Shown one piece after another: positions 3,984-64,000 of a stretch of 64,000 nucleotides of DNA. Both the position numbers and the translations under genes were made by a program. Every line of letters starts with the position of its first letter. The first letter of the stretch is position 1. The notes under the pieces are model-generated. The model was given only the letters and a program-made list of their open reading frames with translations, made no database searches and had not been told where the DNA came from. Source of the DNA: Escherichia coli (GTDB lineage: Bacteria; Pseudomonadota; Gammaproteobacteria; Enterobacterales; Enterobacteriaceae); assembly GCF_024223415.1 (NCBI RefSeq), contig NZ_CP100500.1. One strand, written 5' to 3'.

Positions 3984-4084
3984 CAGTTGAATAATCAACC
4001 GGATTAATTCTCCGGTAAATAACGACAAAAACAAAATTGGCCATTTCGGTCAGGGCCAACTATTGCCTGAAAAAGGGTAACGAT

Positions 4085-12532: not shown

Positions 12533-13426
12533 ATGACGAATTTAAAAGCAGTTATTCCTGTAGCGGGTCTTGGGATGCATATGTTGCCTGCCACTAAGGC
12601 GATTCCCAAAGAGATGCTACCGATCGTCGACAAGCCTATGATTCAGTACATTGTTGACGAGATTGTGGCTGCAGGGATCAAAGAAATCCTCCTGGTAACT
12701 CATGCGTCCAAGAACGCGGTCGAAAACCACTTCGACACCTCTTATGAATTAGAATCTCTCCTTGAACAGCGCGTAAAGCGTCAATTGCTTGCGGAAGTGC
12801 AGTCCATCTGTCCACCGGGCGTGACCATTATGAACGTGCGTCAGGGCGAACCTTTAGGTTTGGGTCACTCCATTTTATGTGCACGACCCGCCATTGGTGA
12901 CAATCCATTTGTCGTGGTGCTGCCGGACGTTGTGATCGACGACGCCAGCGCCGACCCGCTGCGCTACAACCTTGCTGCCATGATTGCACGATTCAACGAA
13001 ACGGGTCGTAGCCAGGTGCTGGCAAAACGTATGCCGGGTGACCTCTCTGAATACTCGGTCATCCAGACCAAAGAACCACTGGACCGTGAAGGTAAAGTCA
13101 GCCGCATTGTTGAATTTATCGAAAAACCGGATCAGCCGCAGATGTTGGACTCAGACATCATGGCCGTTGGTCGTTATGTGCTTTCTGCCGATATTTGGCC
13201 GGAACTTGAACGCACGCAGCCAGGTGCATGGGGGCGTATTCAGCTGACTGATGCCATCGCTGAACTGGCGAAAACACAGTCCGTTGATGCCATGCTGATG
13301 ACAGGTGACAGCTACGACTGCGGTAAAAAAATGGGTTATATGCAGGCATTTGTGAAGTATGGACTACGCAACCTCAAAGAAGGGGCGAAGTTCCGTAAAG
13401 GGATTGAGAAGCTGTTAAGCGAATAA
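12533..13426 (+). CDS. galF: UTP-glucose-1-phosphate uridylyltransferase paralogue GalF
   Basis: ORF 12521..13426; start at [12 protein letters not shown] gives 297 aa; flanks the O-antigen locus as expected. Confidence 0.9.
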
Positions 13427-13699
13427 TGAAAATCTGACTGGATGTAACGGTTGATAAGAAAATTATAACGGTGGTGAAAATTCGCAGGAAAAGTAACTTG
13501 TTGCGAATATTCCTGCCGTTATTTGATATAAATAACCAGCATAACAACGAGTTAATATTAGGATTTTAGTCAAAGTTTCCTAGGATTTTTCTTGTTTCCA
13601 GAGCGGATTCGTAAGACAATTAGCGCCTTAGTTTTACGGGTTAGCGTGAGTGAGCCATGCTCGTTACATCGCAGGTGTGTATTCAGTGTTCTGGTAGCT

Positions 13700-13722
13700 G
13701 TAAAGCCAGGGGCGGTAGCGTA
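13700..13722 (+). promoter_or_regulatory. JUMPstart/ops element (GGCGGTAGCGT) for RfaH-dependent antitermination
   Basis: Exact ops core GGCGGTAGCGT in the about 1 kb AT-rich galF to O-antigen intergenic region; coordinates approximate. Confidence 0.6.
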
Positions 13723-14450
13723 CATATGAGGAAACATTTCAGCTGAAATAATTGAATATTCCAAAGCATGAGAGTTACTTAATTTGTAAAAGTGCTACAG
13801 TACAATAGAGAGGATCTCTGTCTTCATATTGTTTGCGATCATCTCAGATGAAGTTATTGATTTCATCTTTTAATAGAAGAACTGAATAGAATATGTATGG
13901 CATTATCATTTTGAACAATAATAATAGAATAAAAGGAAGACATCGAAATGGTGGTCAAACATTACATCAGTTCTATTGATTTGACAGCAGAGAAGTCTGC
14001 CACAGCGAACCAAAATTACTGACTCGTAGAGAAGAAGTTGCACTGGCTGCTGAATGGTAATGGATGAAGACGACAGAGAAATAAGAAAAGAAAACTCAGC
14101 AGAATTACCTTCAGGGATATAGCGCATCACTATTTATGTATTGACTAAAGATAAAGCATTTAAGAAAGGTTAAGGTGTAAGGTGTGAAAAGCAGCCATGG
14201 GTAAGGTTCGTTTCGCACAGGCGTTACTTACAGTAGATGGTCGGCACATCGTAAGACTTGGTCTGATTGCCAGATCATATGTGAGACATCAGAAAAAATT
14301 TAAGCAAATATATAAACAGTAGGTGATGTTGTTAAAGTATAAAACAGATATGGTAGTCAAATAAAGCAAAGTATCGTTGGAAAAATATCTGTAAAATCCC
14401 TGGTGCGTTCACGTGAGTTAGAGTAAAAGTAATGAGGAGGTTCTATTTTT

Positions 14451-15551
14451 ATGAGTTTTGAAAATTGGTATATAAAAGATATTGAACCATATAAACTGGC
14501 TAGTCATAAAGTATGGGACGATGTTTGCAACCGAGATATATTAAAATTAGATTGGAATGAAGCAACTATTCCTGCTAGTCCGTATGTAAAGAAAAGAATT
14601 TTAGAAACTATTGATAAAATAGAGTTTAGATATTACCCAAACGTAAACAACATGGAGTTGTTAACAGCTATCGCGGGATATACTCAACTCAACATAGAAA
14701 ATATTCAATATTTTCCAAGTTCTGATGCTGCACATGAATATATAGCATCAGTATTCTTAACATCAGAAGATAGAGTGTTAATATTGTCCCCGACATATGA
14801 TAATTTCAGGCTAACCTGTCAAAGTAGAGGGGCGGAAATATCGTATGTTAATTGTTTTGATGGGGCGTTTCAATTCCAGAGTGAATTATTTATAAATGTT
14901 TTGAAAGAAACAAAGCCTAAAATTGCATATATGTGTAACCCTAACAATCCGACGGGTTCAATAATAAGGCGGGAATATATAAAGAAAATATTAACTCTTT
15001 TTCCTGATATCTTGTTTGTTTTAGATGAGGCTTATATTGAATTTTCATCTGGTTCATGTGGTGATTTTGTTAAGGAATATGATAATTTGATAGTATCAAG
15101 AACCTTCTCGAAGGCATTTGCGCTGGCCAATTTTAGGATTGGTTATATATTGGCTTCACCTAAACTTATAGTTTCAATTAATAAAATAAGAAATTCTAAG
15201 AATGTAACGACATTATCACAAGAGGCTGCAGTTGCTGCATTGCATGATTCTCAATATATGCAAGCTTATGTTAATGAGGTGATTGTAGCGCGACAATACT
15301 TTATTGAAGAGATAAATAGAAGGTTTGGAGATAAGCTGATAGCATATGAAAGTCATGGTAATTTTGTTCTTGTAAAATGCTCCTCGGAAATACTAAAAAA
15401 AACATTAATAAAAGGCCTGGAGGAACAAGATATTTTCATAAGAGATTTGTCACACAAGGAGCTCAATGGTTTACATATAAGGATTACTATTGGAACACGG
15501 ACTCAAATGAGGCAGGTGCTTAATGTTATTGAAAATATTATTGGTCAATAA
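14451..15551 (+). CDS. PLP-dependent aminotransferase (HisC-like class I/II)
   Basis: 366-aa ORF with histidinol-phosphate-aminotransferase-like features; first gene of the AT-rich O-antigen cluster. Confidence 0.75.
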   Translation: MSFENWYIKDIEPYKLASHKVWDDVCNRDILKLDWNEATIPASPYVKKRILETIDKIEFRYYPNVNNMELLTAIAGYTQLNIENIQYFPSSDAAHEYIASVFLTSEDRVLILSPTYDNFRLTCQSRGAEISYVNCFDGAFQFQSELFINVLKETKPKIAYMCNPNNPTGSIIRREYIKKILTLFPDILFVLDEAYIEFSSGSCGDFVKEYDNLIVSRTFSKAFALANFRIGYILASPKLIVSINKIRNSKNVTTLSQEAAVAALHDSQYMQAYVNEVIVARQYFIEEINRRFGDKLIAYESHGNFVLVKCSSEILKKTLIKGLEEQDIFIRDLSHKELNGLHIRITIGTRTQMRQVLNVIENIIGQ

Positions 15552-15587
15552 TATGTTTGCAGGCGCTCTTTATTATGTTGGTCAGCG

Positions 15588-16277
15588 ATGAAATATAAAT
15601 ACGCTTTTTTTGATTTTTGTGAAACGTTGGTGGATTTACAAACTGCTGATGATTACATTTCTGATGTGATTATTAAGAAGGAAGGCCGATGGAGTTATAA
15701 GCTTGCGATTATTGGCTTCTTAAGGAATAGATGGGTTAATAAATTATTTAATAAATTGTTTAACAATTATGATAACCCTAAGTCTTTGATTTTGAAGCTG
15801 GTTAAAGGGTTTGACTATGGGGTCTTTTCTGTTGCTGCAGAAGAATATTGTAAAAAACTAATGGAGTATTACTTAATTGATGATGTTATTTCGGAGATGC
15901 TAGAATTAAAAAAAAAGAATTATCAAATAATCATTGTCTCTGGGGGATATGATATATATATAAAGCATTTTTTTTCCTCAGTTGTAGATAAGGTTATAGC
16001 TACCGAGATTGATTTTTCTGATTCTAAGTGTCTGGGGAAAATATCAGGTATTGATTGTTTAGGTGTGAACAAGTTAAACAAAATAAAGAAATATATTGAT
16101 GTCAACACAATAGATTATGAAAATTCCTACGTCTTTTCTGACAGTAAAACAGATTTGCCTCTTTTTTCGTTAGCAAAGAATAAAATTGTCATATCTAAGA
16201 AAAAAAACAAATCGTGGGTTAATGAGCAAAATGAAGAATTTATTGAAAAAGTATGGTGTCCTAAAAAAATATGCTAA
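15588..16277 (+). CDS. HAD-family hydrolase/phosphatase
   Basis: 229-aa ORF with N-terminal HAD motif I (FFDFCETLVD) and size typical of HAD phosphatases. Confidence 0.6.
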   Translation: MKYKYAFFDFCETLVDLQTADDYISDVIIKKEGRWSYKLAIIGFLRNRWVNKLFNKLFNNYDNPKSLILKLVKGFDYGVFSVAAEEYCKKLMEYYLIDDVISEMLELKKKNYQIIIVSGGYDIYIKHFFSSVVDKVIATEIDFSDSKCLGKISGIDCLGVNKLNKIKKYIDVNTIDYENSYVFSDSKTDLPLFSLAKNKIVISKKKNKSWVNEQNEEFIEKVWCPKKIC

Positions 16278-17145
16278 GAAGTATTATTACTATACTTCTT
16301 CTTTTTTAATGTCAGATGAATTATATATAAAAAGGAAGTTTAAGAAAATTTTCGGATATGCTTTGGATATCAATAATCCAAAAACAATGAATGAAAAGAT
16401 GCAATGGATGAAGTTACATATGCATCCTCAGGAATATAATATTTTTGCAGATAAACTTCTTGTTAGAAAATACGTGGAAGAAAAGATTGGTAAAAATATA
16501 CTAATACCTATTTTTGCAGTATACGAAAGTGAAGCCGAATTAAATATAGATTCTTTGCCTGACGAACCATTTATCATTAAGACGAATCATGATAGTTCTG
16601 GTGGAATAATCGTGAGAAACAAATCAGAACTCAATATAAAGGATGCAAAAAGTTTTTGTCGATTTAATTTGAATAACAATCATTATTATATATCAAGAGA
16701 GAAACATTATAAACATTTAGACAGAAAAATTATTATAGAGAAGCTCCTTCTTACAAAATCCGGAAAAATCCCAAATGATTATAAAATAAATTGTATAAAT
16801 GGGCGTGCTGAATTTATATATTGCTCTATTGATAGAGAGGGGAAAAATTACCGAAAGATTTATGACAGGTCTTGGTGTGAAATGGATTTTAAATGGGGAA
16901 ATAAAGATGAGTTTGAGCATAAATTTACTGGGCCCAATATTGAAAAGCCTGATAATTTAGATAAAATGATTGAGTATGCGGAGATATTATCAATGGGGTT
17001 TCCTTATCTAAGAATAGATTTATACAATGTTGATGGGGAAATATATTTAGGAGAAATAACTATTTATCATGGGGGAGGGTTTGATGTTATTGAGCCAAAA
17101 GAATATGACTTATTTTTTGGTAATAAGATTCATTTAGAAAAATGA
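16222..17145 (+). CDS. TupA-like ATP-grasp protein (putative amidoligase)
   Basis: ORF 16186..17145 overlaps the previous gene; start probably at an internal Met (16222 or 16231); resembles the TupA-like ATP-grasp family found in polysaccharide clusters. Confidence 0.6.
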   Translation: MSKMKNLLKKYGVLKKYAKKYYYYTSSFLMSDELYIKRKFKKIFGYALDINNPKTMNEKMQWMKLHMHPQEYNIFADKLLVRKYVEEKIGKNILIPIFAVYESEAELNIDSLPDEPFIIKTNHDSSGGIIVRNKSELNIKDAKSFCRFNLNNNHYYISREKHYKHLDRKIIIEKLLLTKSGKIPNDYKINCINGRAEFIYCSIDREGKNYRKIYDRSWCEMDFKWGNKDEFEHKFTGPNIEKPDNLDKMIEYAEILSMGFPYLRIDLYNVDGEIYLGEITIYHGGGFDVIEPKEYDLFFGNKIHLEK

Positions 17146-18362
17146 AAAATATTATAAAGAATGGGCTGTCTCTTTCTTTTATAAAGGCAGTGACTTTGCT
17201 ATTTCCTATCGCCATTGTACCTATCCTGATATCAAAGATAGGAATGGATAAATATGGGGAAGTTGTATTTATCACTGCAATATATTCATATTTTATTAAT
17301 GTGGTTAGCTTTGGATTTGAAGAATCAGCCACTCAAGTCTTGGCAAAGAATCACTTCTCAGGTTTGTCGAAAAATGAATATATTTTGTCTGTTATCGTGC
17401 TCAAGGGCATAATTGCTGTTTCTATAATTTTTGTCATTTGTGGTTTGTATTTTTTGGGGATGGGAGGAGATTTTTTCTCATTGCTATTTTGTATTACCAT
17501 CGTCGCTGAGGTTTTTAATCCCTTATGGTTTTATCAGGGGGTCGAAAGAATTCATATTATCTCAGTGAGCTCTATAGTATCAAAATCATTATATACAATA
17601 TTAATATGTCTGTTTGTGAGATGTAATAATGATTATTACCTTGTTCCTGTATTTTTAGGCGGTGCGAATATTCTTTCTTATGTCTATCCGTTTGTTGCTA
17701 TGTGTAATGAGTGTAAATTTCGGCGCAATGACTTGAACTATAATAATTTGAAAAAAGTATTATTAGACTCAGTTAGTATATTCCTTACTAATTTTATCCC
17801 AACATTGAAAGATAAGATAGGTGCTATATTGATAGGTTTATCTTTCTCCATGAATATCGTAGCGATTTATGATATAATTATAAAAATACTTAATTTATTG
17901 TTTATTCCAGTAAATGTAATAAATGCATCGTTCTATCCAACACTTTCCAGGAAGAGAGAAAAGAAAATATTAATGCAATTAATGTATATAAATTTGGGTT
18001 ATGCTATTTTTGCATTTGTTATCGTATGTAATTTTTTTGATTATTTTTCCAATATCTACTTCCAATCCTATTCAGCGTATTCCGATGCTGTAAAAATAAT
18101 ATCTGTGTCTGTTGTTTTTTACTCAGTGAGTTTAATGATTGGAAAAAATATCCTATTGGTCACTGGTTTTTATCATCATGTGCTGCTCAGTATTATATTA
18201 TCGACAGGATTTTATTTGATGTTTGTCTGCTTTATGTATTCTCTTAGTTCATTGAGTATATATTCATTATGCTTTTTAACAACAGCATCATTCTTATTTG
18301 AAATGCTGGTTAGGTTAATTATGTTAAAGAAGACTAAGGCCTTGTTTTTTTTTAAATATTAA
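17142..18362 (+). CDS. wzx: O-antigen flippase
   Basis: 406-aa, very hydrophobic, about 12 predicted TM segments, AT-rich; 4-nt overlap with the upstream gene. Confidence 0.7.
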   Translation: MKNIIKNGLSLSFIKAVTLLFPIAIVPILISKIGMDKYGEVVFITAIYSYFINVVSFGFEESATQVLAKNHFSGLSKNEYILSVIVLKGIIAVSIIFVICGLYFLGMGGDFFSLLFCITIVAEVFNPLWFYQGVERIHIISVSSIVSKSLYTILICLFVRCNNDYYLVPVFLGGANILSYVYPFVAMCNECKFRRNDLNYNNLKKVLLDSVSIFLTNFIPTLKDKIGAILIGLSFSMNIVAIYDIIIKILNLLFIPVNVINASFYPTLSRKREKKILMQLMYINLGYAIFAFVIVCNFFDYFSNIYFQSYSAYSDAVKIISVSVVFYSVSLMIGKNILLVTGFYHHVLLSIILSTGFYLMFVCFMYSLSSLSIYSLCFLTTASFLFEMLVRLIMLKKTKALFFFKY

Positions 18363-18376
18363 TTAGGTATGGAAGT

Positions 18377-19246
18377 ATGAAAACAGTGTCAGTAATCATT
18401 CCAACATATAGGGATTGGGAAAGATTATCTAAATGTTTAAATGCAATAAAAAAACAAAGATATCCCGCAGAGTTTATTCAGGTAATAGTCATTAATAATG
18501 ATCCATTTGATGATAATCCATTTATAAATAGTGATGAATATAAAAATGTAAAGTTTTTAGTAGAGGGAAAGGTGGGTTCTTATGCAGCAAGAAATAAAGG
18601 CCTAAATTATGCAAAAGGGGAGATTATAGCATTCACTGATTCAGATTGTGTCCCAGATGAGTTTTGGATTTCAAATGCTGTTCGACATTTTGAAGAAAAT
18701 AGTAAATGCACAAGAATTGGTGGGAAAATTGAATTATTTTTCAAAGGTAATGTAAGTAAAACCCTAGCTGAATTTTATGAACAAAGTTATGCTTTCCGGC
18801 AGAAAGAGTTTGTTCAACGACAGGGAATGGCTGCAACAGCTAATATGTTCTCATATAAGAAGGTTTTTGATGATATATCATATTTCAATGATTCATTGAT
18901 GTCGGGAGGAGATGCCGAATGGGGAGTTAGGGCAAATAATAAAGGATATAGAATAGACTATTGTGATTCTGTCACTGTTTATCATCCGGCAAGAGAATCG
19001 ATGAAACAAATTTTTATAAAAAATCGAAGGGAAGCCAGTGGTAAAATAAAAAATAAACGAAAAGTGTTAATCAATTTTGTAATGTCATTGCTCCCACCAT
19101 TAAAATCGTTGATGTATATTAGGTATCATGGGAATAGTATATATAAAGTATTAATTGCATTTTTTATTAGATATTTAATGAGGATTGATACGGCTATAGA
19201 ACAAATCCGGGTTGTGTTTTTTAATAAGAAAGCCGAGCGATTATGA
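18377..19246 (+). CDS. glycosyltransferase family 2
   Basis: N-terminal GT2 signature (VSVIIPTYRDWERLSKCLNAI) and DxD (TDSDC). Confidence 0.75.
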   Translation: MKTVSVIIPTYRDWERLSKCLNAIKKQRYPAEFIQVIVINNDPFDDNPFINSDEYKNVKFLVEGKVGSYAARNKGLNYAKGEIIAFTDSDCVPDEFWISNAVRHFEENSKCTRIGGKIELFFKGNVSKTLAEFYEQSYAFRQKEFVQRQGMAATANMFSYKKVFDDISYFNDSLMSGGDAEWGVRANNKGYRIDYCDSVTVYHPARESMKQIFIKNRREASGKIKNKRKVLINFVMSLLPPLKSLMYIRYHGNSIYKVLIAFFIRYLMRIDTAIEQIRVVFFNKKAERL

Positions 19247-20487
19247 AAATGTTTTTTTTTGTTCTTTGCGTGTTCTTTTTAATAAATGGCTTTTATATAT
19301 ATCCGCCATTTAATAGTGCAATTTTAGCACCGATGTTAGCTTTATTGGGAGCACTAACATTAAGGAAGAAAATAACGATAAAGCCCTTTTCTGACTTGTT
19401 AGATCCTTCATTTTTATTTTGGTTTCTTTTTGTAAGTTGTTATTGTCTATCAATTGCAGTTTTCTCAAAAACATATGACTTATCATATGTAAAGAACTTT
19501 ATATCACAACTTGTTCAATTTGCTATTATTTTATTTAGTTTTTTTATGTTATCATCAATAGATGGAGCATTTTCTCTTAAGATAGAAAAAATTATCGTAT
19601 ATAGCTTCGTTTTACAATCTGTTATTCAGATAGCAGCATTTCTATATCCTGGAATAGCCGATATTATTCATTTATTTTATGATAAAGATAAAGTAGAGCG
19701 ATTATACATCAATTACGCAGGAGTAAGAGGACTGGCGTTGACTGGTTCCCCAGGGTGGGGAATATCTGTTGGATATGCTATATCATTTTTACTTTTTGTT
19801 AAAGCATTTGTTATTAATCAGAAATTGAAGTTTTCTAGTATTATAGTTGCAATACTACTTTTAATCGGTGCAATGTTTACTGGTCGCAGTGCTTTTATTG
19901 GTGTTATTTTCGGTGGGGGGTATTATCTTGTATCAGGAGAGGATATTACAAAAAAAATCAAAACTATAATTCTATTTTTAATTCTTCCTGCATTAATATG
20001 CATGTTAACATATATAATGTTGCCATCCCTATCCTCACTATTCGGAGATAAGGTTTTCCCATTTGTCTTTGAGTTCTATTATAAATACAAAGACACAGGT
20101 GAGTTATCTACTAAATCTACAGATATTTTGTTGAATATGTGGGATCTTAACGTTGATGTTACTGACATTGTGTTCGGTACAGGTAATTTCACAAATGACA
20201 AAACTGGAGAGTATTATTTCGGTAGTGATGTGGGATATCTCCGGAATTTATTGTATGGTGGTTTTTTTTGGATGTTCACTCTTTTTATTTATCAGGTTTC
20301 ATTATTTGGACAACTGCGTTGGTGGAAAAAAAGAAAGGATATTAAATTATTTGTATTCATTTTTATAGCCATGTTAATGTTGCTTGAGATGAAAGCAATG
20401 GCCATAGGATATAATAAATATGTGTTTACAGTTTCTATTTTATTAGGATTGTCATTTAAAGAGAGATACAGAAATGCTTACCAATAA
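19243..20487 (+). CDS. wzy: O-antigen polymerase
   Basis: 414-aa polytopic membrane protein with a large loop, extremely AT-rich; typical Wzy profile. Confidence 0.6.
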   Translation: MKMFFFVLCVFFLINGFYIYPPFNSAILAPMLALLGALTLRKKITIKPFSDLLDPSFLFWFLFVSCYCLSIAVFSKTYDLSYVKNFISQLVQFAIILFSFFMLSSIDGAFSLKIEKIIVYSFVLQSVIQIAAFLYPGIADIIHLFYDKDKVERLYINYAGVRGLALTGSPGWGISVGYAISFLLFVKAFVINQKLKFSSIIVAILLLIGAMFTGRSAFIGVIFGGGYYLVSGEDITKKIKTIILFLILPALICMLTYIMLPSLSSLFGDKVFPFVFEFYYKYKDTGELSTKSTDILLNMWDLNVDVTDIVFGTGNFTNDKTGEYYFGSDVGYLRNLLYGGFFWMFTLFIYQVSLFGQLRWWKKRKDIKLFVFIFIAMLMLLEMKAMAIGYNKYVFTVSILLGLSFKERYRNAYQ

Positions 20488-21385
20488 AGTCTCTGTTGTT
20501 ATTCCGACACATAGTCGGCCTAATCTTTTGCGAAAAGCTATAGAAAGTGTTTTGAATCAGACATATAAGCCATGTGAAATTATTGTTGTTGATGATACAG
20601 AATCTGAAGAAACCGCTCGATGTTTATCTGTCATAAATAGCGATATACCTATTAGGCTAAAGTATAACACTTCTTCTGGTGCCGGCTCGTCTAGGAATTT
20701 AGGTGCAAAGATTGCTAATGGTGATTTTGTGGCTTTCTTGGATGACGATGATCTCTGGCTTCCAACTAAATTAGAAACGCAGATGTATGAATTGCGGCAT
20801 ACACAATATGATGCAATTTTTTGTCAGATGATAATAAATTATGAAGGGGTAAACATACAATATTCTACTCGAGCCAAAAATGTAGCTGAACCATTAAAAG
20901 AAATATGTATTGAAAACTTTATTGGTGCCACAATATCCTGTGTTATACGCCGTTCAATTTTTATGAAATTAGGAGGGTTTGATGAAAGATTCAAGGCTAG
21001 AGAGGAATATGATTTATGGATTCGAGTTATTCAATCTAATGCTAAAATTAAAATAATAGAAAAACCATTAACTATTTCAAATCGTTCTTTTGTACGGAAT
21101 CGTATTTCTTCTAACATAAATAATTATGAGCACGGAATATCACTTATTAACGAAAAATATGCTCGATTGATTACTGAAATATTAACTCCCAATGAGAGAA
21201 GAATAAGATTATCGAAACAATATGAATTTCTAGCTGCTCAGGCAATATCTTTAGGCCTTAAAATGACAAGCTCAAAGTATTATTTTAAGTCTTTTTTAAC
21301 AATTCCTTCTCTTAAATCGTTATTTCTTTCATTGTTGAGTATTATTTCTCCGCTAATGATAATAAAAATTAGAAGCAAACTTTAA
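20474..21385 (+). CDS. glycosyltransferase family 2
   Basis: N-terminal GT2 signature (VSVVIPTHSRPNLLRKAIESV) and DDDD motif. Confidence 0.75.
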   Translation: MLTNKVSVVIPTHSRPNLLRKAIESVLNQTYKPCEIIVVDDTESEETARCLSVINSDIPIRLKYNTSSGAGSSRNLGAKIANGDFVAFLDDDDLWLPTKLETQMYELRHTQYDAIFCQMIINYEGVNIQYSTRAKNVAEPLKEICIENFIGATISCVIRRSIFMKLGGFDERFKAREEYDLWIRVIQSNAKIKIIEKPLTISNRSFVRNRISSNINNYEHGISLINEKYARLITEILTPNERRIRLSKQYEFLAAQAISLGLKMTSSKYYFKSFLTIPSLKSLFLSLLSIISPLMIIKIRSKL

Positions 21386-21427
21386 TTATATCATCATTAT
21401 TAGACAGTCAATAACTGTGGAGTTAAC

Positions 21428-22690
21428 ATGAGTTCTGGGTTTAATTCTATTGAAAAGAACTTTTCAAGATTTTTATCTTACTTTCCAGGGATAAAAAAAA
21501 TAATTAAAAAAGCTTACATAAGGATAAATTTTTATATCTACAAAAAAGAACATAAAGTAAAAAGTGATTACAGCATCCATACGATTGATATCGATAGTTG
21601 CGAAACTTTTTTTGGATACTATGATAAATGTCCCGATAATGGTAAAGGAGATGTTATCGTTTGTGCATCGACTATATCTACCCACAACATACCTGATCCA
21701 AACAATCCGATTAAATTATATGTGTACAATCTTTGTACTAAAGATAAGGTGTTCATTGCTAATATTTCTGCATATAATTGGCAACAAGGATGTCGTGCTC
21801 ATTGGCTAAACGATGATTTACTTATTTATAACTTTTACTCTCATGAAAAGCGTAATTATTCGTCGAAAATATACTCAATCATAGAGAAAAAACATATAGC
21901 AGAGTTCTCTTTTGCGGTACAAGACAGTTTTCTTGGTAATTATTTTTTATCTATAAACTATTCTCGCTTAATGGCGTTACGCCCAGATTATGGATATAGA
22001 AATAAAAGTTTTTCTTGGGAATTGTTTGATCTGGCTAATGATGGTATATGGAAAGTCGATATTAGCTCTCGTAAGGGAGAATTAATCGTTACATTTTGTG
22101 ATATTATTAATTTTGAGTTTGAAAATAATGATGAGTATAAACATAAAGTTAACCATGTAATGATTTCTCCCGATGGTGAAAAATTTATATTTATACATCG
22201 TTATTATTATAAAGGTAAACGGAATGATAGATTAATGTTGTCAACCAAAGACGGACATTTAATTTCAGTATTAGCTAATAATAAAATGGTTAGTCATTGT
22301 TGTTGGCTTTCCAATGATAAAATTATCGGTTATTTAAGATCTGATAGTGGTGATGATAGTTATTGGGTTATTGATATAAATAATCTGGAGTCATACCAAC
22401 TCTTAGATGGTGAATTACTAAAATATGGCGATGGTCATCCATCGAATTGTAAAAATCTATTAGTGACGGATACATATCCTAATAAGTCAAGATATCAGAA
22501 ATTATTATTAGTCGATATGGATAATGATAATTACCAGGAACTTGGTGAGTTTTTACATGATCTTAGTTTTTCTGATGAGACTAGATGTGACTTACATCCT
22601 CGCTTTTCTCATGATGGCAGCATGATTTTTTTTGATTCAGTTTTTTCTGGAAAACGCAAGTTATGCTATTTACAGTTAATTAATAAATAA
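21428..22690 (+). CDS. hypothetical protein, beta-propeller-like C-terminus, inside the O-antigen cluster
   Basis: 420-aa ORF with no recognisable GT motif; C-terminal repeats (HPRFSHDGSMIFFDS) resemble TolB/oligogalacturonate-lyase-type propeller blades. Confidence 0.5.
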   Translation: MSSGFNSIEKNFSRFLSYFPGIKKIIKKAYIRINFYIYKKEHKVKSDYSIHTIDIDSCETFFGYYDKCPDNGKGDVIVCASTISTHNIPDPNNPIKLYVYNLCTKDKVFIANISAYNWQQGCRAHWLNDDLLIYNFYSHEKRNYSSKIYSIIEKKHIAEFSFAVQDSFLGNYFLSINYSRLMALRPDYGYRNKSFSWELFDLANDGIWKVDISSRKGELIVTFCDIINFEFENNDEYKHKVNHVMISPDGEKFIFIHRYYYKGKRNDRLMLSTKDGHLISVLANNKMVSHCCWLSNDKIIGYLRSDSGDDSYWVIDINNLESYQLLDGELLKYGDGHPSNCKNLLVTDTYPNKSRYQKLLLVDMDNDNYQELGEFLHDLSFSDETRCDLHPRFSHDGSMIFFDSVFSGKRKLCYLQLINK

Positions 22691-22695
22691 AGTGA

Positions 22696-23511
22696 TTGTA
22701 TATGAAAGTCGCAGTCGCAATGTCTGTATATAAGAATGATAATCCTATATACTTAGAGAAAGCCATTAAAAGTATATTGAATCAAACATATAAAAATATC
22801 CATTTATATATAGAGGTCGATGGAGTCATATCTCCACAATTATATCAATGTTTATCCTCTTTTATCTCATGCTCAAATATTAGTATAAATTTTAATAGTG
22901 ATTGTAAAGGATTGGCATTTAGATTAAATAATATTATTGATAAGGTTATATTTGATGGAGGATATTCGTATATTGCAAGAATGGATGCTGATGATATATC
23001 TCGACTCGATAGGATTGAAAAACAAGTAATATTTATGCAGACCCATAAGGATATTTCTGTTGTTGGTTCTGATGTTCTAGAAATAGATGAGGATGATAAT
23101 TTTTTATTTTACAAAAAAATGCATTGTGATCATGAGATCATCGTTCGAGATATTATTAAGAAATGTCCAATAAATCATCCCTCAGCATTTTTTAAAATAT
23201 CTTCATTTTATATAGTTAGATATAATTCCACCTTGAAGAACACACAGGATTATTACTTGTGGATTGATTTTATTTATAATAATTTAAAGATCTCAAACAT
23301 CAATGAGCCTTTGTTAAAATTTAGAGTGAATAGAGATTTTTATTCACGGAGAGGGTTTGATAAAGCTATCAATGATGTAAAATCACGAATATATGCCTTG
23401 CGAAAGTTGAATTGCTATTCACTAAGGAATATATTTCATATATTAATGCTTTTTTTTCTTAGAGTATCTCCGACTGTAATAAAAAAAATTGCATACAATA
23501 GACTTAGATAA
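22696..23511 (+). CDS. glycosyltransferase family 2
   Basis: GT2 signature (VAVAMSVYKNDNPIYLEKAIKSILNQTY) and DADD motif; last gene before gnd. Confidence 0.7.
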   Translation: MYMKVAVAMSVYKNDNPIYLEKAIKSILNQTYKNIHLYIEVDGVISPQLYQCLSSFISCSNISINFNSDCKGLAFRLNNIIDKVIFDGGYSYIARMDADDISRLDRIEKQVIFMQTHKDISVVGSDVLEIDEDDNFLFYKKMHCDHEIIVRDIIKKCPINHPSAFFKISSFYIVRYNSTLKNTQDYYLWIDFIYNNLKISNINEPLLKFRVNRDFYSRRGFDKAINDVKSRIYALRKLNCYSLRNIFHILMLFFLRVSPTVIKKIAYNRLR

Positions 23512-23698
23512 ACTTCATCTACCACGCTATAGTCGGTAAGTGGTCTTCGTTTTTCTTAAAAAAGAAGCAACGTGACATATTTTTCTTTGTTACAGAAATA
23601 TTAAGATATCCATTATCATTTTTTCACATTTGATAAAACTTATCTTATATATCCAATTACATATATATATTGCGATAGAGTCTTGACAGGAGTAAACA

Positions 23699-25105
23699 AT
23701 GTTAAAGCAACAGATAGGTGTTGTCGGTATGGCAGTGATGGGGCGCAACCTTGCGCTCAATATAGAAAGCTGTGGTTATACCGTCTCTATTTTCAACCGT
23801 TCCCGTGAAAAGACGGAAGAAGTGATTGCCGAAAATCCAGGCAAGAAACTGGTGCCTTACTACACGGTTAAAGAGTTTGTTGAATCTCTGGAAACGCCTC
23901 GTCGCATCCTGTTAATGGTGAAAGCAGGTGCAGGCACGGATGCTGCTATTGATTCCCTAAAACCATACCTCGATAAGGGCGACATCATCATTGATGGTGG
24001 TAACACCTTCTTCCAGGACACAATTCGTCGTAACCGTGAGCTTTCTGCCGAAGGCTTTAACTTCATTGGTACCGGAGTTTCCGGCGGTGAAGAAGGTGCG
24101 CTGAAAGGTCCTTCTATTATGCCCGGTGGCCAGAAAGAAGCCTATGAACTGGTTGCGCCGATCCTGACCAAGATCGCCGCAGTAGCTGAAGACGGTGAGC
24201 CATGCGTTACCTACATTGGTACCGATGGCGCAGGCCACTATGTGAAGATGGTTCACAACGGTATTGAATACGGCGATATGCAGCTGATTGCTGAAGCCTA
24301 TTCGCTGCTTAAAGGTGGCCTGAACCTCACCAACGAAGAACTGGCGCAGACCTTTACCGAGTGGAATAACGGTGAACTGAGTAGCTACCTGATCGACATC
24401 ACCAAAGATATCTTTACTAAAAAAGATGAAGACGGTAACTACCTGGTTGATGTGATTCTGGATGAAGCGGCTAACAAAGGTACCGGTAAATGGACCAGCC
24501 AGAGCGCGCTGGATCTCGGCGAACCGCTGTCGCTGATTACCGAGTCTGTGTTTGCACGTTATATCTCTTCTCTGAAAGATCAGCGCGTTGCCGCATCTAA
24601 AGTTCTCTCTGGCCCGCAAGCACAGCCAGATGGCGACAAGGCTGAGTTCATCGAAAAAGTTCGTCGTGCTCTATATCTGGGCAAAATCGTTTCTTACGCC
24701 CAAGGCTTCTCTCAGCTGCGTGCTGCGTCTGAAGAGTACAACTGGGATCTGAACTACGGCGAAATCGCGAAGATTTTCCGTGCTGGTTGCATCATTCGTG
24801 CGCAGTTCCTTCAGAAAATCACTGATGCATATGCCGAAAATCCGAAGATCGCTAACTTGCTACTGGCTCCGTACTTTAAACAAATTGCCGATGATTATCA
24901 GCAGGCGCTGCGTGATGTCGTTGCTTATGCAGTGCAGAACGGTATCCCGGTTCCTACCTTTGCTGCTGCGGTTGCCTATTACGACAGCTACCGTGCTGCT
25001 GTTCTGCCTGCGAACTTGATCCAGGCGCAGCGTGACTATTTTGGTGCACATACTTATAAGCGCATTGATAAAGCAGGTGTCTTCCATACCGAATGGCTGG
25101 ATTAA
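23699..25105 (+). CDS. gnd: 6-phosphogluconate dehydrogenase, decarboxylating
   Basis: 468-aa ORF recognised as Gnd ([19 protein letters not shown]-binding motif); core GC content. Confidence 0.95.
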
Positions 25106-36102: not shown

Positions 36103-36149
36103 TTTCTTATTCCTCTTTAAACCTGTCTGAACCGTTATCAATCGCGCAA

Positions 36150-36190
36150 TAAAAAAGCCCCCGGAAGGTGATCTTCCGGGGGCTTTCTCA
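36150..36190 (-). terminator. his attenuator terminator hairpin
   Basis: On the minus strand, GCCCCCGGAAG-loop-CTTCCGGGGGC followed by a T-run, between hisL and hisG; coordinates approximate. Confidence 0.7.
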
Positions 36191-36247
36191 TGCGTTCATG
36201 CACCACTGGAAGATCTGAATGTCTTCCAGCACACATCGCCTGAAAGA

Positions 36248-36298
36248 CTAGTCAGGATGATGGTGATGATGGTGGTGTTTAAATTGAACGCGTGTCAT
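36248..36298 (-). CDS. hisL: his operon leader peptide
   Basis: Minus-strand mini-ORF translating to MTRVQFKHHHHHHHPD* (seven consecutive His codons), too short for the ORF track; coordinates approximate. Confidence 0.85.
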   Translation of the reverse strand: MTRVQFKHHHHHHHPD

Positions 36299-38965: not shown

Positions 38966-39231
38966 AGAAAAATTATTATGGCAAGCCTCTCATTCTCTTG
39001 TCATTTCCCCCCCATTTAGGCACAATGCGCCGCTGTCAAAAAATGACTAAAAACCGACGTTTCATCAGCGTCGGTTATTTTTTGCTTCAAACCAATCATT
39101 CATACCAAGAGGCCGGGCTTCGTACCGGATAGATATTTACTAAAAATCGACAGTTGTTGTCGCTGAGGAATCCAAAAAAATGGGGCAATTTTTTGCTTAC
39201 GCGACGGTTATCACCGTAAAGGAGAATGACC

Positions 39232-47499: not shown

Positions 47500-47680
47500 G
47501 CTTGTTGCCGGAAAAGCAGGCACCTGCCGTCTGAACGGTATCGATCCGGAAGCGTATCTGCGCCATATTCTGAGCATACTGCCGGAATGGCCCTCCAACC
47601 GTGTTGACGAACTCCTGCCATGGAACGTAGTTCTCACCAATAAATAAGCGTCAATACGGTGCTCCGTTGACGCTTACTTT
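47500..47680 (+). mobile_element. IS66-family right-end remnant (transposase C-terminus plus terminal inverted repeat)
   Basis: Plus-strand translation …GIDPEAYLRHILSILPEWPSNRVDELLPWNVVLTNK* parallels the C-terminus of the intact transposase at 61821..63356; downstream …CGCTTAC matches the IS66 IR core; coordinates approximate. Confidence 0.55.
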
Positions 47681-59488: not shown

Positions 59489-60952
59489 CTGCTTTTCTCA
59501 CATTTGCAGATTTTAAAAAAGCAAACAAAAACCTCCGTACATGATGTACAGAACAATCTACCAGGTAGTGGCGTCAGAAAACCCCCGGGCCGCCTGCACT
59601 TTCCAGAATGCGCCGGTTATGAAAAACCGGAAATTCAGTCTCTGTTGTAAGATGTACCCTCTGATACTACGTTTTCTCTGTGTATTTAACTCACTGTATT
59701 TATTGTCTTTTTAAGCTTGACTGATATTCTCCGGTCATAGTGTGCCGGATATACATCCCGTAAACTTCTCATTTTTATATAAAAATACCTGCACTCTCTT
59801 CAGCGCATCTGTCTCCTTTAAGTAAAAAATGTTTTCACGTATTGCTGTAAATTCATTTTAAATCAGTATATTACCTTGATATTGCTGTCTCCTGGTTTGA
59901 TGCGTAATCGTTCTGCCTTTCTGGATGATTCTGGTGCTTCCGGGTGCATTCTCCTCTGCACATGCAACAGTTCGTCATCGCCACGCTCCCAAAAAGCATA
60001 TAAAAACGAATCGAATTTGATATTTTTTTCAATCGTTTTTCATAGGAATTTCGTAGGGTATTCTCCGCTATAACCTCCATATTTGCTGCCTTTTTCTCCA
60101 TAAATCGTATGCAATATAGCCTGTCTGTCAAGACCTCTTCTCTGCTGTTGAGGAGACGATCTCATTTTTGGTCTTTTCCGGGAGAGAGGCTGTCAGATGA
60201 GCGAGCCGGATATACTGTCAGAGGTACACCCCGTAGCAGACCTGTGCTCCCATTTCCGCGATCCGGAACCAACAACACCCTACGGTTAATACCATTTGAA
60301 GCGTCAGGTACTGCAGGAAGTTCCCCCCTGCGCGGACATCGGTTCCTGCCGACATCTCACAATACGGCCAGACTGTCATGCAGTAACACCCGCATGCGGT
60401 CTGCGGTTTTAAGCGCACTCTCCCGTTTTCAGTGCACCGATAATGCGTCATAGTAAGTCTGGGGGAAGTTACGGAATGCCTGTTAAGTGGTGCCGTGGGT
60501 GGAGACAGCTTACTTTTCTACAGCAACTGCAGTCATTCAGGATGATCAGGAGATATTCTGTCAATGTCACGATCCTGCCATTTTCGTACCCGCTAAGATA
60601 CTTCCGTTACTGATGCTGTCCGCTTTTCACCATTTCATCCTCACTGACAGGCGTTGCGTTTTGGGTCATCACCACAGCTTTACGTTTCTCTTTTAACCGG
60701 TAACGCTCTCCTTTGATATTCAGCGTGGTTGAGTGATGCAGCAGTCAATCCAGGAGCGCTGTTGTCCGGCAACCACCATATCAACTTCTTCCCGGGTGTG
60801 GCGGAGAGGTGGTATCCTGGCTGAGTTTCGAAGCGAACCGTTCTTTTTGACGGGCGCATTTTACGTCCGGGCTGAATGTAGTAACGCGGCATGGAACGTC
60901 GGCCCGTATACCATTGCCTTAATCTCCGCAAAGATAACCTCGTCATTCCGGA

Positions 60953-60960
60953 CATTCTCT
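60953..60960. repeat. 8-bp target-site duplication (CATTCTCT), left copy
   Basis: Same octamer directly abuts both ends of the IS66-family element; coordinates approximate. Confidence 0.6.
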
Positions 60961-61043
60961 GTAAGCGTCGTCTGAGTACCGTCTGGTCCCGAATCCAGGA
61001 TCCTGTAACTTAAGCACCCACTTATTTTGCAGGTGGACACCTC

Positions 61044-61427
61044 ATGCGCGCTAAAGAAAGACTTCCCCGGAAACACTATTCCCCTGAATTCAAAATGGAA
61101 CTGGTCAGGCTGGCTCTTGAAGAAGAAGGCAGTATTGCCGCACTGGCCCGGAAACATGACGTCAATGATAACCTGCTCTTTAAATGGATAAGGCTCTGGC
61201 AGCGTGAAGGGCGGGTCTGTCGGCCCCGAAAAAACTCATCGTCGCTTCCTGCCCTGATACCCGTGCAGCTTCAGGCGGGCTCTTCTCTCCCAACCTTCGA
61301 ACTACCATCCTGCTCTCCTCCCGCTACCTGCCACATAAAATGTCGGGGAGGAGAAATAACACTGACTCATCCCTCTGCTGAACTCATGAGCACTGTCCTG
61401 CGCGAACTGATGCGGGGGCCTGTATGA
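61044..61427 (+). CDS. IS66-family accessory protein (orfA, HTH)
   Basis: 127-aa ORF with N-terminal transposase-type HTH (RKHYSPEFKMELVRLALEEEGSIAALARKHDVNDNLLFKWIR). Confidence 0.8.
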   Translation: MRAKERLPRKHYSPEFKMELVRLALEEEGSIAALARKHDVNDNLLFKWIRLWQREGRVCRPRKNSSSLPALIPVQLQAGSSLPTFELPSCSPPATCHIKCRGGEITLTHPSAELMSTVLRELMRGPV

Positions 61428-61771
61428 TAAATCTTCCCGCAGGCACAAAAATCTGGCTGGTTGCCGGTATCACCGATATGCGCAACGGCTTCAATGGCCT
61501 CGCCGCAAAGGTGCAGACCGCGCTGAAAGATGACCCGATGTCCGGCCACGTCTTCATCTTCCGGGGACGCAGCGGCAGTCAGGTAAAACTGCTCTGGTCC
61601 ACCGGCGATGGTCTGTGCCTGCTGACAAAGCGACTAGAACGTGGTCGCTTCGCCTGGCCCTCAGCCCGCGATGGCAAAGTGTTCCTGACGCTGGCGCAAC
61701 TGGCGATGCTGATGGAAGGTATCGACTGGCGACAGCCAAAGCGGTTACTGACATCCCTGACCATGTTGTAG
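61424..61771 (+). CDS. IS66-family TnpB (orfB)
   Basis: 115-aa ORF with the conserved TnpB signature (LPAGTKIWLVAGITDMRNGFNGL); 4-nt overlap with orfA. Confidence 0.85.
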   Translation: MINLPAGTKIWLVAGITDMRNGFNGLAAKVQTALKDDPMSGHVFIFRGRSGSQVKLLWSTGDGLCLLTKRLERGRFAWPSARDGKVFLTLAQLAMLMEGIDWRQPKRLLTSLTML

Positions 61772-61820
61772 CGCTCTTTATCCTGGTTGTCGCAGAATAA
61801 GCCTGGTAAAATACAGGCTT

Positions 61821-63356
61821 ATGAACGACACCTCTTCTGACGACATCCTTCTGCTGAAACAGCGCCTGGCCGAACAGGAAGCGTTGATCCACGCCCTGCA
61901 GGAAAAGCTGAGCAACCGGGAACGCGAAATAGACCATCTGCAGGCGCAACTGGATAAGCTGCGCCGGATGAACTTCGGCAGTCGTTCCGAAAAGGTATCC
62001 CGCCGTATCGCGCAAATGGAAGCTGACCTGAACCTGCTGCAGCAGGAAAGCGATACGCTGACCGGCCGGGTGGATGACCCGGCAGTGCAGCGCCCGCTGC
62101 GTCAGACCCGCACCCGCAAACCGTTCCCTGAGTCACTCCCACGGGATGAGAAGCGGCTGCTGCCGACTGAGCCGTGTTGCCCGGAGTGCGGTGGTTCGCT
62201 GAGTTACCTGGGTGAGGATGCCGCCGAACAGCTGGAGCTGATGCGCAGCGCCTTCCGGGTTATCCGGACAGTCCGTGAAAAGCATGCCTGCCGTCGGTGC
62301 GATCGCATCGTTCAGGCCCCGGCTCCTTCGCGCCCCATCGAACGGGGGATCGCCGGACCGGGGCTGCTGGCCCGAGTGCTGACCTCAAAGTATGCAGAGC
62401 ACATACCGCTGTATCGCCAGTCGGAGATCTATGCCCGCCAGGGTGTAGTGTTGAGTCGTTCTGTACTGTCGGGCTGGGTGGATGCGTGTTGTCGTCTGCT
62501 GGCACCGCTGGATGAAGCCCTTCAGCACTATGTCCTGACCGACGGCAAACTCCATGCTGACGATATGCCTGTCCCGGTGCTGTTGCCGGGCAATAAGAAG
62601 ACGAAGACCGGGCGCTTATGGACGTACGTTCGAGACGACCGCAACGCCGGATCAGCGCTGGCCCCCGCAGTGTGGTTCGCTTACAGCCCGGACAGAAAAG
62701 GTATCCACCCTCAGACCCATCTTGCAGGCTTCAGTGGCGTACTGCAGGCTGATGCCTACGCCGGGTTCAACGAGCTCTACCGCGACGGCCATATAAAGGA
62801 AGCCGCGTGCTGGGCCCATGCCCGCCGAAAAATCCACGATGTTCACGTCCGTACCCCGTCAGCCCTGACGGAGGAGGCGCTGAAACGGATCGGCGAGCTG
62901 TATGCCATCGAGTCGGAGCTCAGAGGTAAAAGAGCAGAGGAACGGCAGGCAGTCCGGCACCAAAAAGTGCTGCCGCTGCTGGCGTCACTGGAGGGGTGGC
63001 TGCGGGAGAAACAGAAAACCCTCTCAAGGCACTCAGAACTGGCGAAGGCGTTCGGGTATGCGCTGAACCAGTGGCCGGCGCTGACCCGCTATGCAGAAGA
63101 TGGCTGGGTGGAGGTGGATAATAACATTGCCGAAAACGCCCTACGACTGGTCAGTCTGGGGAGAAAAAACTGGCTGTTCTTCGGCTCGGATCATGGTGGT
63201 GAGCGCGGTGCGTCACTGTACAGTCTTATCGGGACGTGCAAATTAAACGGCGTGGATCCGGAACGCTATCTGCATCATGTACTTGATGTCATCGCCGACT
63301 GGCCTGTGAACCGGGTGGGTGCTCTGCTCCCGTGGCGGGTTACTCTGCCTGCCTGA
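61821..63356 (+). CDS. IS66-family transposase (orfC)
   Basis: 511-aa ORF with N-terminal leucine-zipper-like region, zinc-finger Cys pairs (CPECGG…CRRCDRI) and the IS66 DDE-type core. Confidence 0.9.
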   Translation: MNDTSSDDILLLKQRLAEQEALIHALQEKLSNREREIDHLQAQLDKLRRMNFGSRSEKVSRRIAQMEADLNLLQQESDTLTGRVDDPAVQRPLRQTRTRKPFPESLPRDEKRLLPTEPCCPECGGSLSYLGEDAAEQLELMRSAFRVIRTVREKHACRRCDRIVQAPAPSRPIERGIAGPGLLARVLTSKYAEHIPLYRQSEIYARQGVVLSRSVLSGWVDACCRLLAPLDEALQHYVLTDGKLHADDMPVPVLLPGNKKTKTGRLWTYVRDDRNAGSALAPAVWFAYSPDRKGIHPQTHLAGFSGVLQADAYAGFNELYRDGHIKEAACWAHARRKIHDVHVRTPSALTEEALKRIGELYAIESELRGKRAEERQAVRHQKVLPLLASLEGWLREKQKTLSRHSELAKAFGYALNQWPALTRYAEDGWVEVDNNIAENALRLVSLGRKNWLFFGSDHGGERGASLYSLIGTCKLNGVDPERYLHHVLDVIADWPVNRVGALLPWRVTLPA

Positions 63357-63397
63357 CCAGCTTCACTTCGTCAATACGGTTCTCACTGCACGCTTAC

Positions 63398-63405
63398 CAT
63401 TCTCT
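63398..63405. repeat. 8-bp target-site duplication (CATTCTCT), right copy
   Basis: Identical to the octamer at 60953..60960; coordinates approximate. Confidence 0.6.
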
Positions 63406-64000
63406 GCCAGGCATATGTCGATGTAATCCATAAACGATTTCAGCTTACCCCTTTTGTGGCCAGTCTTTCTGGCTGGCGGTTCAGGGGATGTTTTCTGGTT
63501 ATCGTGTACCACAAAGCAGGGATATTGCCCCGATAGTCACATTTCAGATTGATCGCGGTCTGAAGATGTGGCACTGAGGTAACGTGCTGGTGTCACTGGT
63601 ATTGCTGAAGTTATGGTTTTTCGGGGTCAGGTGAGCCTGTTGTGTGTATGCTTTTTGTTCAGGTCAGAGGGGGACTGTGTGGACAGCGGCTTTTGTCTCC
63701 GGGCATTCACGCCTGAACGATGAATGCGATTTTCAGCAATATTTGTCTTTGTGACACTCTCTGGTTGAGAAGCTAATGCGCGCCCCTGTTTCCACAGAGA
63801 ATGAGGCTTGCCATCAGCCGAAACATCAGTATTCCACGCCATACAGACGGCGCCTGACCATGTGCTGATGCAGGTAAAATGTTTCACTACAACTGTTCGG
63901 GTTGCTATGCAACGAAACAGCGATTCTCACGATCTTTAACTGCAACGTTTTTCCGCCTGAAAGTAAGCGTACAGCGAGGGCCGTATTGACGGGGATGTGT

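Follow-up and report, generated by a model that had tools for sequence, protein, structure and literature searches.

The window analysed here (64,000 nt of Escherichia coli DNA) is collinear with E. coli chromosomes: galF, the O-antigen cluster, gnd, ugd, wzz, the his operon, yefM-yoeB, and the yee genes follow one another and lead into a CP4-44-like island with cbtA/cbeA, yeeS, and antirestriction, patatin-like, dynamin-family, and GTPase-family genes. Within this island sits an IS66-family insertion sequence with three genes, bounded by a pair of inverted repeats and by two copies of the same octamer, and lying inside the remains of an IS21-family element (Table 1).

Table 1. Features of the IS66-family element and of the sequence it interrupts, in window coordinates.
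Feature	Position	Strand	Evidence or description
istB (AAA ATPase) C-terminal tail, same relic as istA	60607-60744	-	Pfam IstB_IS21; RefSeq "AAA family ATPase, incomplete"
istA pseudogene fragment, downstream portion	60759-60960	-	RefSeq pseudogene in filled and empty alleles; tblastn
Left target-site duplication (TSD) copy, CATTCTCT	60953-60960	.	Direct reading and scripted recount; single in empty allele L012
IS66-family element, complete	60961-63397	+	2,437 bp; inverted repeats, empty-site comparison, same ends in independent copies
IRL, GTAAGCGTCGTCTGAGTACCGT	60961-60982	+	Inverted-repeat pair, 22 nt, 77% complementary
tnpA, 127-aa helix-turn-helix accessory protein	61044-61427	+	Pfam HTH_Tnp_1; NCBIfam NF047595; RefSeq tnpA
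tnpB, 115-aa IS66 accessory protein	61424-61771	+	Pfam TnpB_IS66 (PF05717); NCBIfam NF033819
tnpC, 511-aa DDE transposase	61821-63356	+	Pfam LZ_Tnp_IS66, zf-IS66, DDE_Tnp_IS66, DDE_Tnp_IS66_C; NCBIfam NF033517
IRR, ...ACGGTTCTCACTGCACGCTTAC	63376-63397	+	Paired with IRL
Right TSD copy, CATTCTCT	63398-63405	.	Direct reading and scripted recount; single in empty allele L012
Same istA fragment, upstream portion	63406-63485	-	Mapped from the L012 pseudogene via the reconstruction query

An earlier reading of the window, made from the sequence alone (here the sequence-only reading), had described three intact ORFs in canonical order. They are indeed the IS66 set, running tnpA, tnpB, tnpC on one strand, with all three products above the curated Pfam and NCBIfam cut-offs; RefSeq already annotates them as IS66 tnpA, tnpB, and tnpC. 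TnpA matches Pfam HTH_Tnp_1 with E = 2.9e-13 (50.3 bits, cut-off 24.1) and passes the IS66-like TnpA model NF047595 marginally (75.7 bits, cut-off 74). For TnpB the match to PF05717 has E = 3.7e-38 (129.9 bits, cut-off 26.6), and that to NF033819 (IS66_TnpB) reaches 117.6 bits (cut-off 50). TnpC covers profile positions 1-283 of 284 in DDE_Tnp_IS66 (PF03050; E = 7e-104, 347.6 bits, cut-off 23.1) and scores 462 bits with NF033517 (transpos_IS66; cut-off 180). Its Pfam domains are a leucine zipper, a zinc finger, the DDE domain, and a C-terminal domain, and it contains the motifs HADD (245), LQADAY (308), CWAHARR (330), and DNNIAEN (433), which we take to hold the putative catalytic DDE residues. 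TnpB here is an accessory protein of the IS66 type and should not be confused with the IS200/IS605 nuclease that bears the same name. In a cluster look-up, the source names of the three proteins were the generic "IS66 family" only.

The tnpA stop codon and the tnpB start codon overlap as ATGA; this overlap, and a short spacer (49 nt) before tnpC, are shared with the IS66-family layout. With the family, whose prototype is IS66 of the Agrobacterium Ti plasmid, the element shares its inverted repeats, target-site duplication, gene order, and TnpC domains. Peptides from IS66 TnpC have been found to bind the beta sliding clamp, with strong clamp-binding motifs in TnpB and/or TnpC (PMC3971601).

The termini likewise fit. 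IS66-family elements are described as having inverted repeats of 20-30 bp that start with GTAAGCG and as being flanked by 8-bp direct repeats (PMC11946415), and members captured with transposition traps show 8-bp repeats as well (PMC3281130). Both 22-nt arms of the present element start with GTAAGCGT. The imperfect GTAAGCG and CGCTTAC termini of the sequence-only reading are thus family-typical ends; the arms are complementary at 17 of 22 positions, imperfect overall but perfect over the outermost 8 nt. Its further claim, of identical octamers on both flanks, held on a scripted recount, which found CATTCTCT on either side. The duplication is exactly 8 bp, since the agreement ends with the octamers: the adjoining bases differ both upstream (ATTCCGGA vs. 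ACGCTTAC) and downstream (GTAAGCGT vs. GCCAGGCA). An exact 8-bp match sited exactly at both ends has a probability of about 1.5e-5 by chance; stronger evidence of a target-site duplication than this figure are the occurrence in other genomes of an empty site with a single CATTCTCT and the other copies of the insertion sequence, which end at the same bases with different perfect 8-bp duplications; both are described below. An insertion sequence can in such a case be delimited to the base from raw sequence.

The interrupted target had been left without a clear coding assignment in the sequence-only reading, and here the comparison leads elsewhere: the target is what remains of an IS21-family istA, a degenerate fragment accompanied by an istB tail. 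In both the filled and the empty alleles, RefSeq places on the minus strand an "IS21 family transposase, frameshifted, incomplete" and an "AAA family ATPase, incomplete"; in one empty allele (L012), the first of these is a pseudogene at 1899-2180 of that sequence and runs across the insertion point. Translated on the minus strand, the target without the insertion sequence gives ...KLKSFMDYIDICLAEN|VRNDEVIFAEIKA... (the bar marks the insertion point); over 74 residues this has 56.6% identity to annotated plasmid istA genes (tblastn). A Pfam search of both istA-derived target fragments gave no match, so that the istA assignment rests on tblastn and the RefSeq pseudogene calls. The istB tail matches the last 30 positions of the Pfam IstB_IS21 profile (209-238 of 238; E = 6.6e-8). 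The target has the IS21-family order, istA and then istB on one strand, with both pieces present as short fragments. The host is not obviously affected, the target having been a pseudogene before the element arrived: the insertion disrupts nothing functional, having entered what was already a fragment of another insertion sequence.

For a view of the locus before the insertion, the insertion sequence and one octamer were removed in silico, giving a 1,195-bp reconstruction with its junction at position 600, and this was compared with the complete E. coli genomes, 5,426 in number. Many of them match it without a break and at 100% identity from position 1 to position 1158, across the junction; at least 403 of the 5,426 cover at least 80% of the reconstruction in one piece, and so have the empty allele. 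In L012 the sequence is ...cattccgga CATTCTCT gccaggcat..., with the octamer present once and the flanks otherwise identical. Excision and search of the reconstructed target, which the sequence-only reading had put forward as its own check, therefore recovered a genuine empty allele.

The filled allele is also widely shared. A 400-bp probe for the left junction has a full-length, identical match in 294 of the 5,426 genomes, and copies of the insertion sequence that are 100% identical to the one in the window are present in many E. coli chromosomes with the filled junction. The insertion had been called simple and probably recent. That it arose by simple transposition stands, because a pre-insertion allele exists; the second adjective needs qualifying. 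An insertion found in 294 genomes is an inherited or island-borne polymorphism and not private to this strain, and its sharing on this scale counts against a very recent event here, so that it is recent solely on an evolutionary scale. The polymorphism itself (filled in 294 genomes, empty in at least 403, of 5,426) could serve as a marker of CP4-44-like island lineages.

The same insertion sequence, 4-5 SNPs apart and with the same termini, is carried by plasmids of E. coli, Salmonella enterica, and Shigella; the plasmid types with near-identical copies are IncHI2, IncF, IncI, and IncY. Near-identical copies occupy five or more other sites, and a perfect 8-bp duplication, different at each, flanks the copies at five plasmid sites (GAAAAAAT, GTTAGGCC, TTCCATGC, AGACGGGC, and AGAGGAAG), in keeping with the family's 8-bp rule. 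These independent copies, with the same ends, fix the boundaries of the element and show that it has moved repeatedly and recently. Its mobility is thus seen in silico in two ways, from an empty allele at the present site and from near-identical copies elsewhere with different duplications. A further copy, on pGE3, adjoins another IS66-type end and has a duplication with one mismatch.

We conclude, with a probability that we put at about 97%, that the sequence between the two octamers is a complete, well-known enterobacterial IS66-family insertion sequence that transposed as a unit into CATTCTCT, within a dead IS21 relic of a CP4-44-like island. Nothing observed contradicts this identification, and the conditions that the sequence-only reading had named for its own refutation were checked and came out in its favor. 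The element is already known and annotated in RefSeq, ordinary, found in hundreds of genomes, and inserted in junk DNA. As to how it arrived, the DDE transposase TnpC would recognize the GTAAGCG-type inverted repeats, helped by TnpB and by the helix-turn-helix protein TnpA; the 3′-OH ends of the element would then be joined to phosphates in the target with an 8-bp stagger, and host repair of the two resulting 8-nt gaps would produce the CATTCTCT duplication. What is known of DDE transposons and of the IS66 family is our ground for inferring these reactions, the requirement for TnpA, TnpB, and TnpC together, and the present activity of this copy; the exact ends, the duplication, the intact gene set, the empty allele, and the independent insertions are seen directly in the sequences.

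A more elaborate possibility concerns the neighborhood of the insertion. Of the other GTAAGCG and CGCTTAC heptamers in the window, only those at 47671 and 63963 mark further IS66 copies, the rest being chance occurrences. The former belongs to a relic of an IS66-family right end (47519-47677); the latter, 565 bp downstream of the insertion sequence, is the end of an ISEc8-family element. The window's right-hand junction at 63963 was not found in any complete E. coli genome searched. There are, then, three IS66-family ends within 16 kb of the island: the present element, the end at 63963, and the relic. It might be proposed that the element is an unnamed mosaic, with an ISEc8-type tnpB-tnpC-IRR portion joined to an unrelated IRL-tnpA portion, and that the IS66 family has a real preference for sites near the ends of other insertion sequences. 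We regard this combination as improbable. The basis cited for such a preference is the three ends within 16 kb, together with the abutment on pGE3; tolerance of insertions in junk DNA is the alternative to it.

Much less probable is an assignment of the element to ISEc8, as a further copy or an isoform of this IS66-family element of E. coli O157:H7, which is the best-known E. coli member of the family. The comparators were the "insertion sequence:ISEC8" of Stx2 phage 1717 and copies annotated by PGAP as "ISEc8 family transposase." The likenesses are considerable: an ISEc8-family copy has nearly the same length (2,436 vs. 2,437 bp), the same gene order, a similar IRR, TnpB and TnpC proteins that are 96.5 and 87.3% identical to those here, and about 83% DNA identity over tnpB-tnpC-IRR; the ISEc8 copy examined has an 8-bp duplication as well (GCGTAATC). 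However, ISEc8-annotated elements align to positions 482-2437 of the insertion sequence only, at 82.5-83% DNA identity. The left 480 bp, comprising IRL, leader, and tnpA, is unrelated (43-48% DNA identity, about 48% for IRL and leader, with TnpA 36.9% identical as protein), IRL and tnpA being essentially unalignable, and overall DNA identity is about 75%. By ISfinder convention, isoforms share about 90% or more of their DNA sequence and 95% or more of their transposase protein sequence, and the present DNA value is far below this; PGAP, moreover, calls this TnpC an "IS66 family transposase," not an "ISEc8 family" one. High identity over the whole element is what an ISEc8 assignment would call for, and the assignment was rejected on the values for DNA, TnpC, and TnpA alike. 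By these alignments, the element is a distinct family member that shares a tnpB-tnpC module with ISEc8 and has a different IRL-tnpA module. All relatives in the phage collection were likewise of the ISEc8 type, at about 83%.

That the octamers are a coincidence, or that recombination with the island around it, rather than transposition at this site, brought the element in, is barely credible: the insertion does always occur with the same island context in the 294 genomes, and individual strains may have acquired it by recombination or island transfer, but the empty allele, with exactly one CATTCTCT and otherwise identical, is the signature of transposition in the island lineage, the independent copies follow the same 8-bp rule, and as the origin of the insertion this account is already refuted.

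With ISEc22, another IS66-family element also found in Enterobacteriaceae, the comparison was by length alone, 2,454 bp (PMC5001619) against 2,437 bp here. With this length the element is among the shorter ones of the IS66 family, from which it does not otherwise differ at family level; listed Paracoccus members are 2.7-2.8 kb long (PMC3281130).

The sequence-only reading had also taken the insertion sequence to be still functional. This is plausible, to judge from the intact ORFs and the near-identical copies at other sites, which support it for this kind of insertion sequence in general. IS679, the IS66-family member of the EPEC plasmid pB171, has reportedly been characterized functionally, all three of its ORFs being required for transposition. 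The TnpB encoded in the window has a rare leucine at position 90, where nearly all other copies have proline: this exact variant was counted on 78 contigs and the commonest variant listed on 343. As a sign of an inactivated copy, Leu90 was considered and rejected, as this column is variable among IS66 TnpB proteins: in an alignment extending down to 64% identity, it holds P, Q, R, or L, in contrast to 57 other columns that do not vary.

The first IS66-family element (the 2,437-bp copy at window positions 60961-63397, with tnpA, tnpB and tnpC on the + strand) is, judging by its sequence, mosaic in structure with respect to its named relative ISEc8. Its tnpB-tnpC portion, together with the right terminal inverted repeat (IRR), has ~83% DNA identity to ISEc8, while positions 61440 and below (60961-61440: left inverted repeat, leader and tnpA) have no relation to it, the TnpA proteins being 36.9% identical. 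This combination suggests module exchange among IS66-family elements.

A second IS66-family element (see the table below) starts 565 bp downstream of the first. The part of it within the window, GTAAGCGTACAGCGAGGGCCGTATTGACGGGGATGTGT, is 100% identical to the tnpC-side end of elements labeled "ISEc8 family" by PGAP, and elements with this end are found in 3,398 of 5,426 complete E. coli genomes. At the same position, genomes with the first site either filled or empty (with or without the 2,437-bp element) instead read ...cctgaaagCTGACTGCC... The junction at 63963 was absent from all complete E. coli genomes in the collection, with a best coverage of 164 of 201 nt, and the insertion therefore looks strain-specific.

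Features located in the window
Feature	Position	Strand or orientation	Basis
algC RNA	4031-4080	+	Rfam
JUMPstart element preceding the O-antigen cluster	13684-13722	+	Rfam
His operon leader	36149-36272	-	Rfam
sRNA STnc240	39011-39085	+	Rfam
IS66-family right-end relic	47519-47677		TnpC homologue C-terminus and IRR-like end
Second IS66-family element	63963-64000, continuing past the window end	inverted relative to the first element	end match

Two other records carrying the 2,437-bp element deserve comment. On pGE3 (NZ_CP012377.1, 45244-48280), the copy directly abuts another IS66-type end (GATTATT|GTAAGCGTAAACT...), and its flanking octamers, GATTATTA and GATTATTG, are identical except for a single base. 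Such IS66-next-to-IS66 nesting is reminiscent of the arrangement of IS66-family ends in the window. NZ_CP079635.1, described as a Klebsiella pneumoniae plasmid, is 1.04 Mb long with only 5 annotated features, and has the E. coli chromosomal junction identically, including both flanks and CATTCTCT. The record appears to be misassembled or contaminated rather than a genuine Klebsiella plasmid.

The window copy has CTG (Leu) at tnpB codon 90 (position 61692), where nearly all others have CCG (Pro); among the matches listed, this T is common to only two chromosomes. The exact TnpB protein was found in no PLSDB plasmid (best match 99.1%). In an alignment, this column is variable across the IS66 family.

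The IS66-family relic lies at the yeeX-side (tmaR) edge of the CP4-44-like island, the chromosomal genomic island holding the first element. It encodes the final 39 amino acids of a protein homologous to TnpC (E = 2e-12, 61.5% identity), and an IRR-like ...CAATACGGTGCTCCGTTGACGCTTAC comes after these; RefSeq labels its equivalent "transposase domain-containing protein, incomplete."

Elsewhere in the window, the O-antigen gene cluster (~13400-23700, galF to gnd) differs from its counterpart in the O142-type strain that serves as collinear reference, and the adjacent ugd region has only 78% identity to that strain; by these sequence differences, the predicted serogroup is not that of the reference. 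The four Rfam matches exceeding their own gathering thresholds are all usual for such a chromosomal region.
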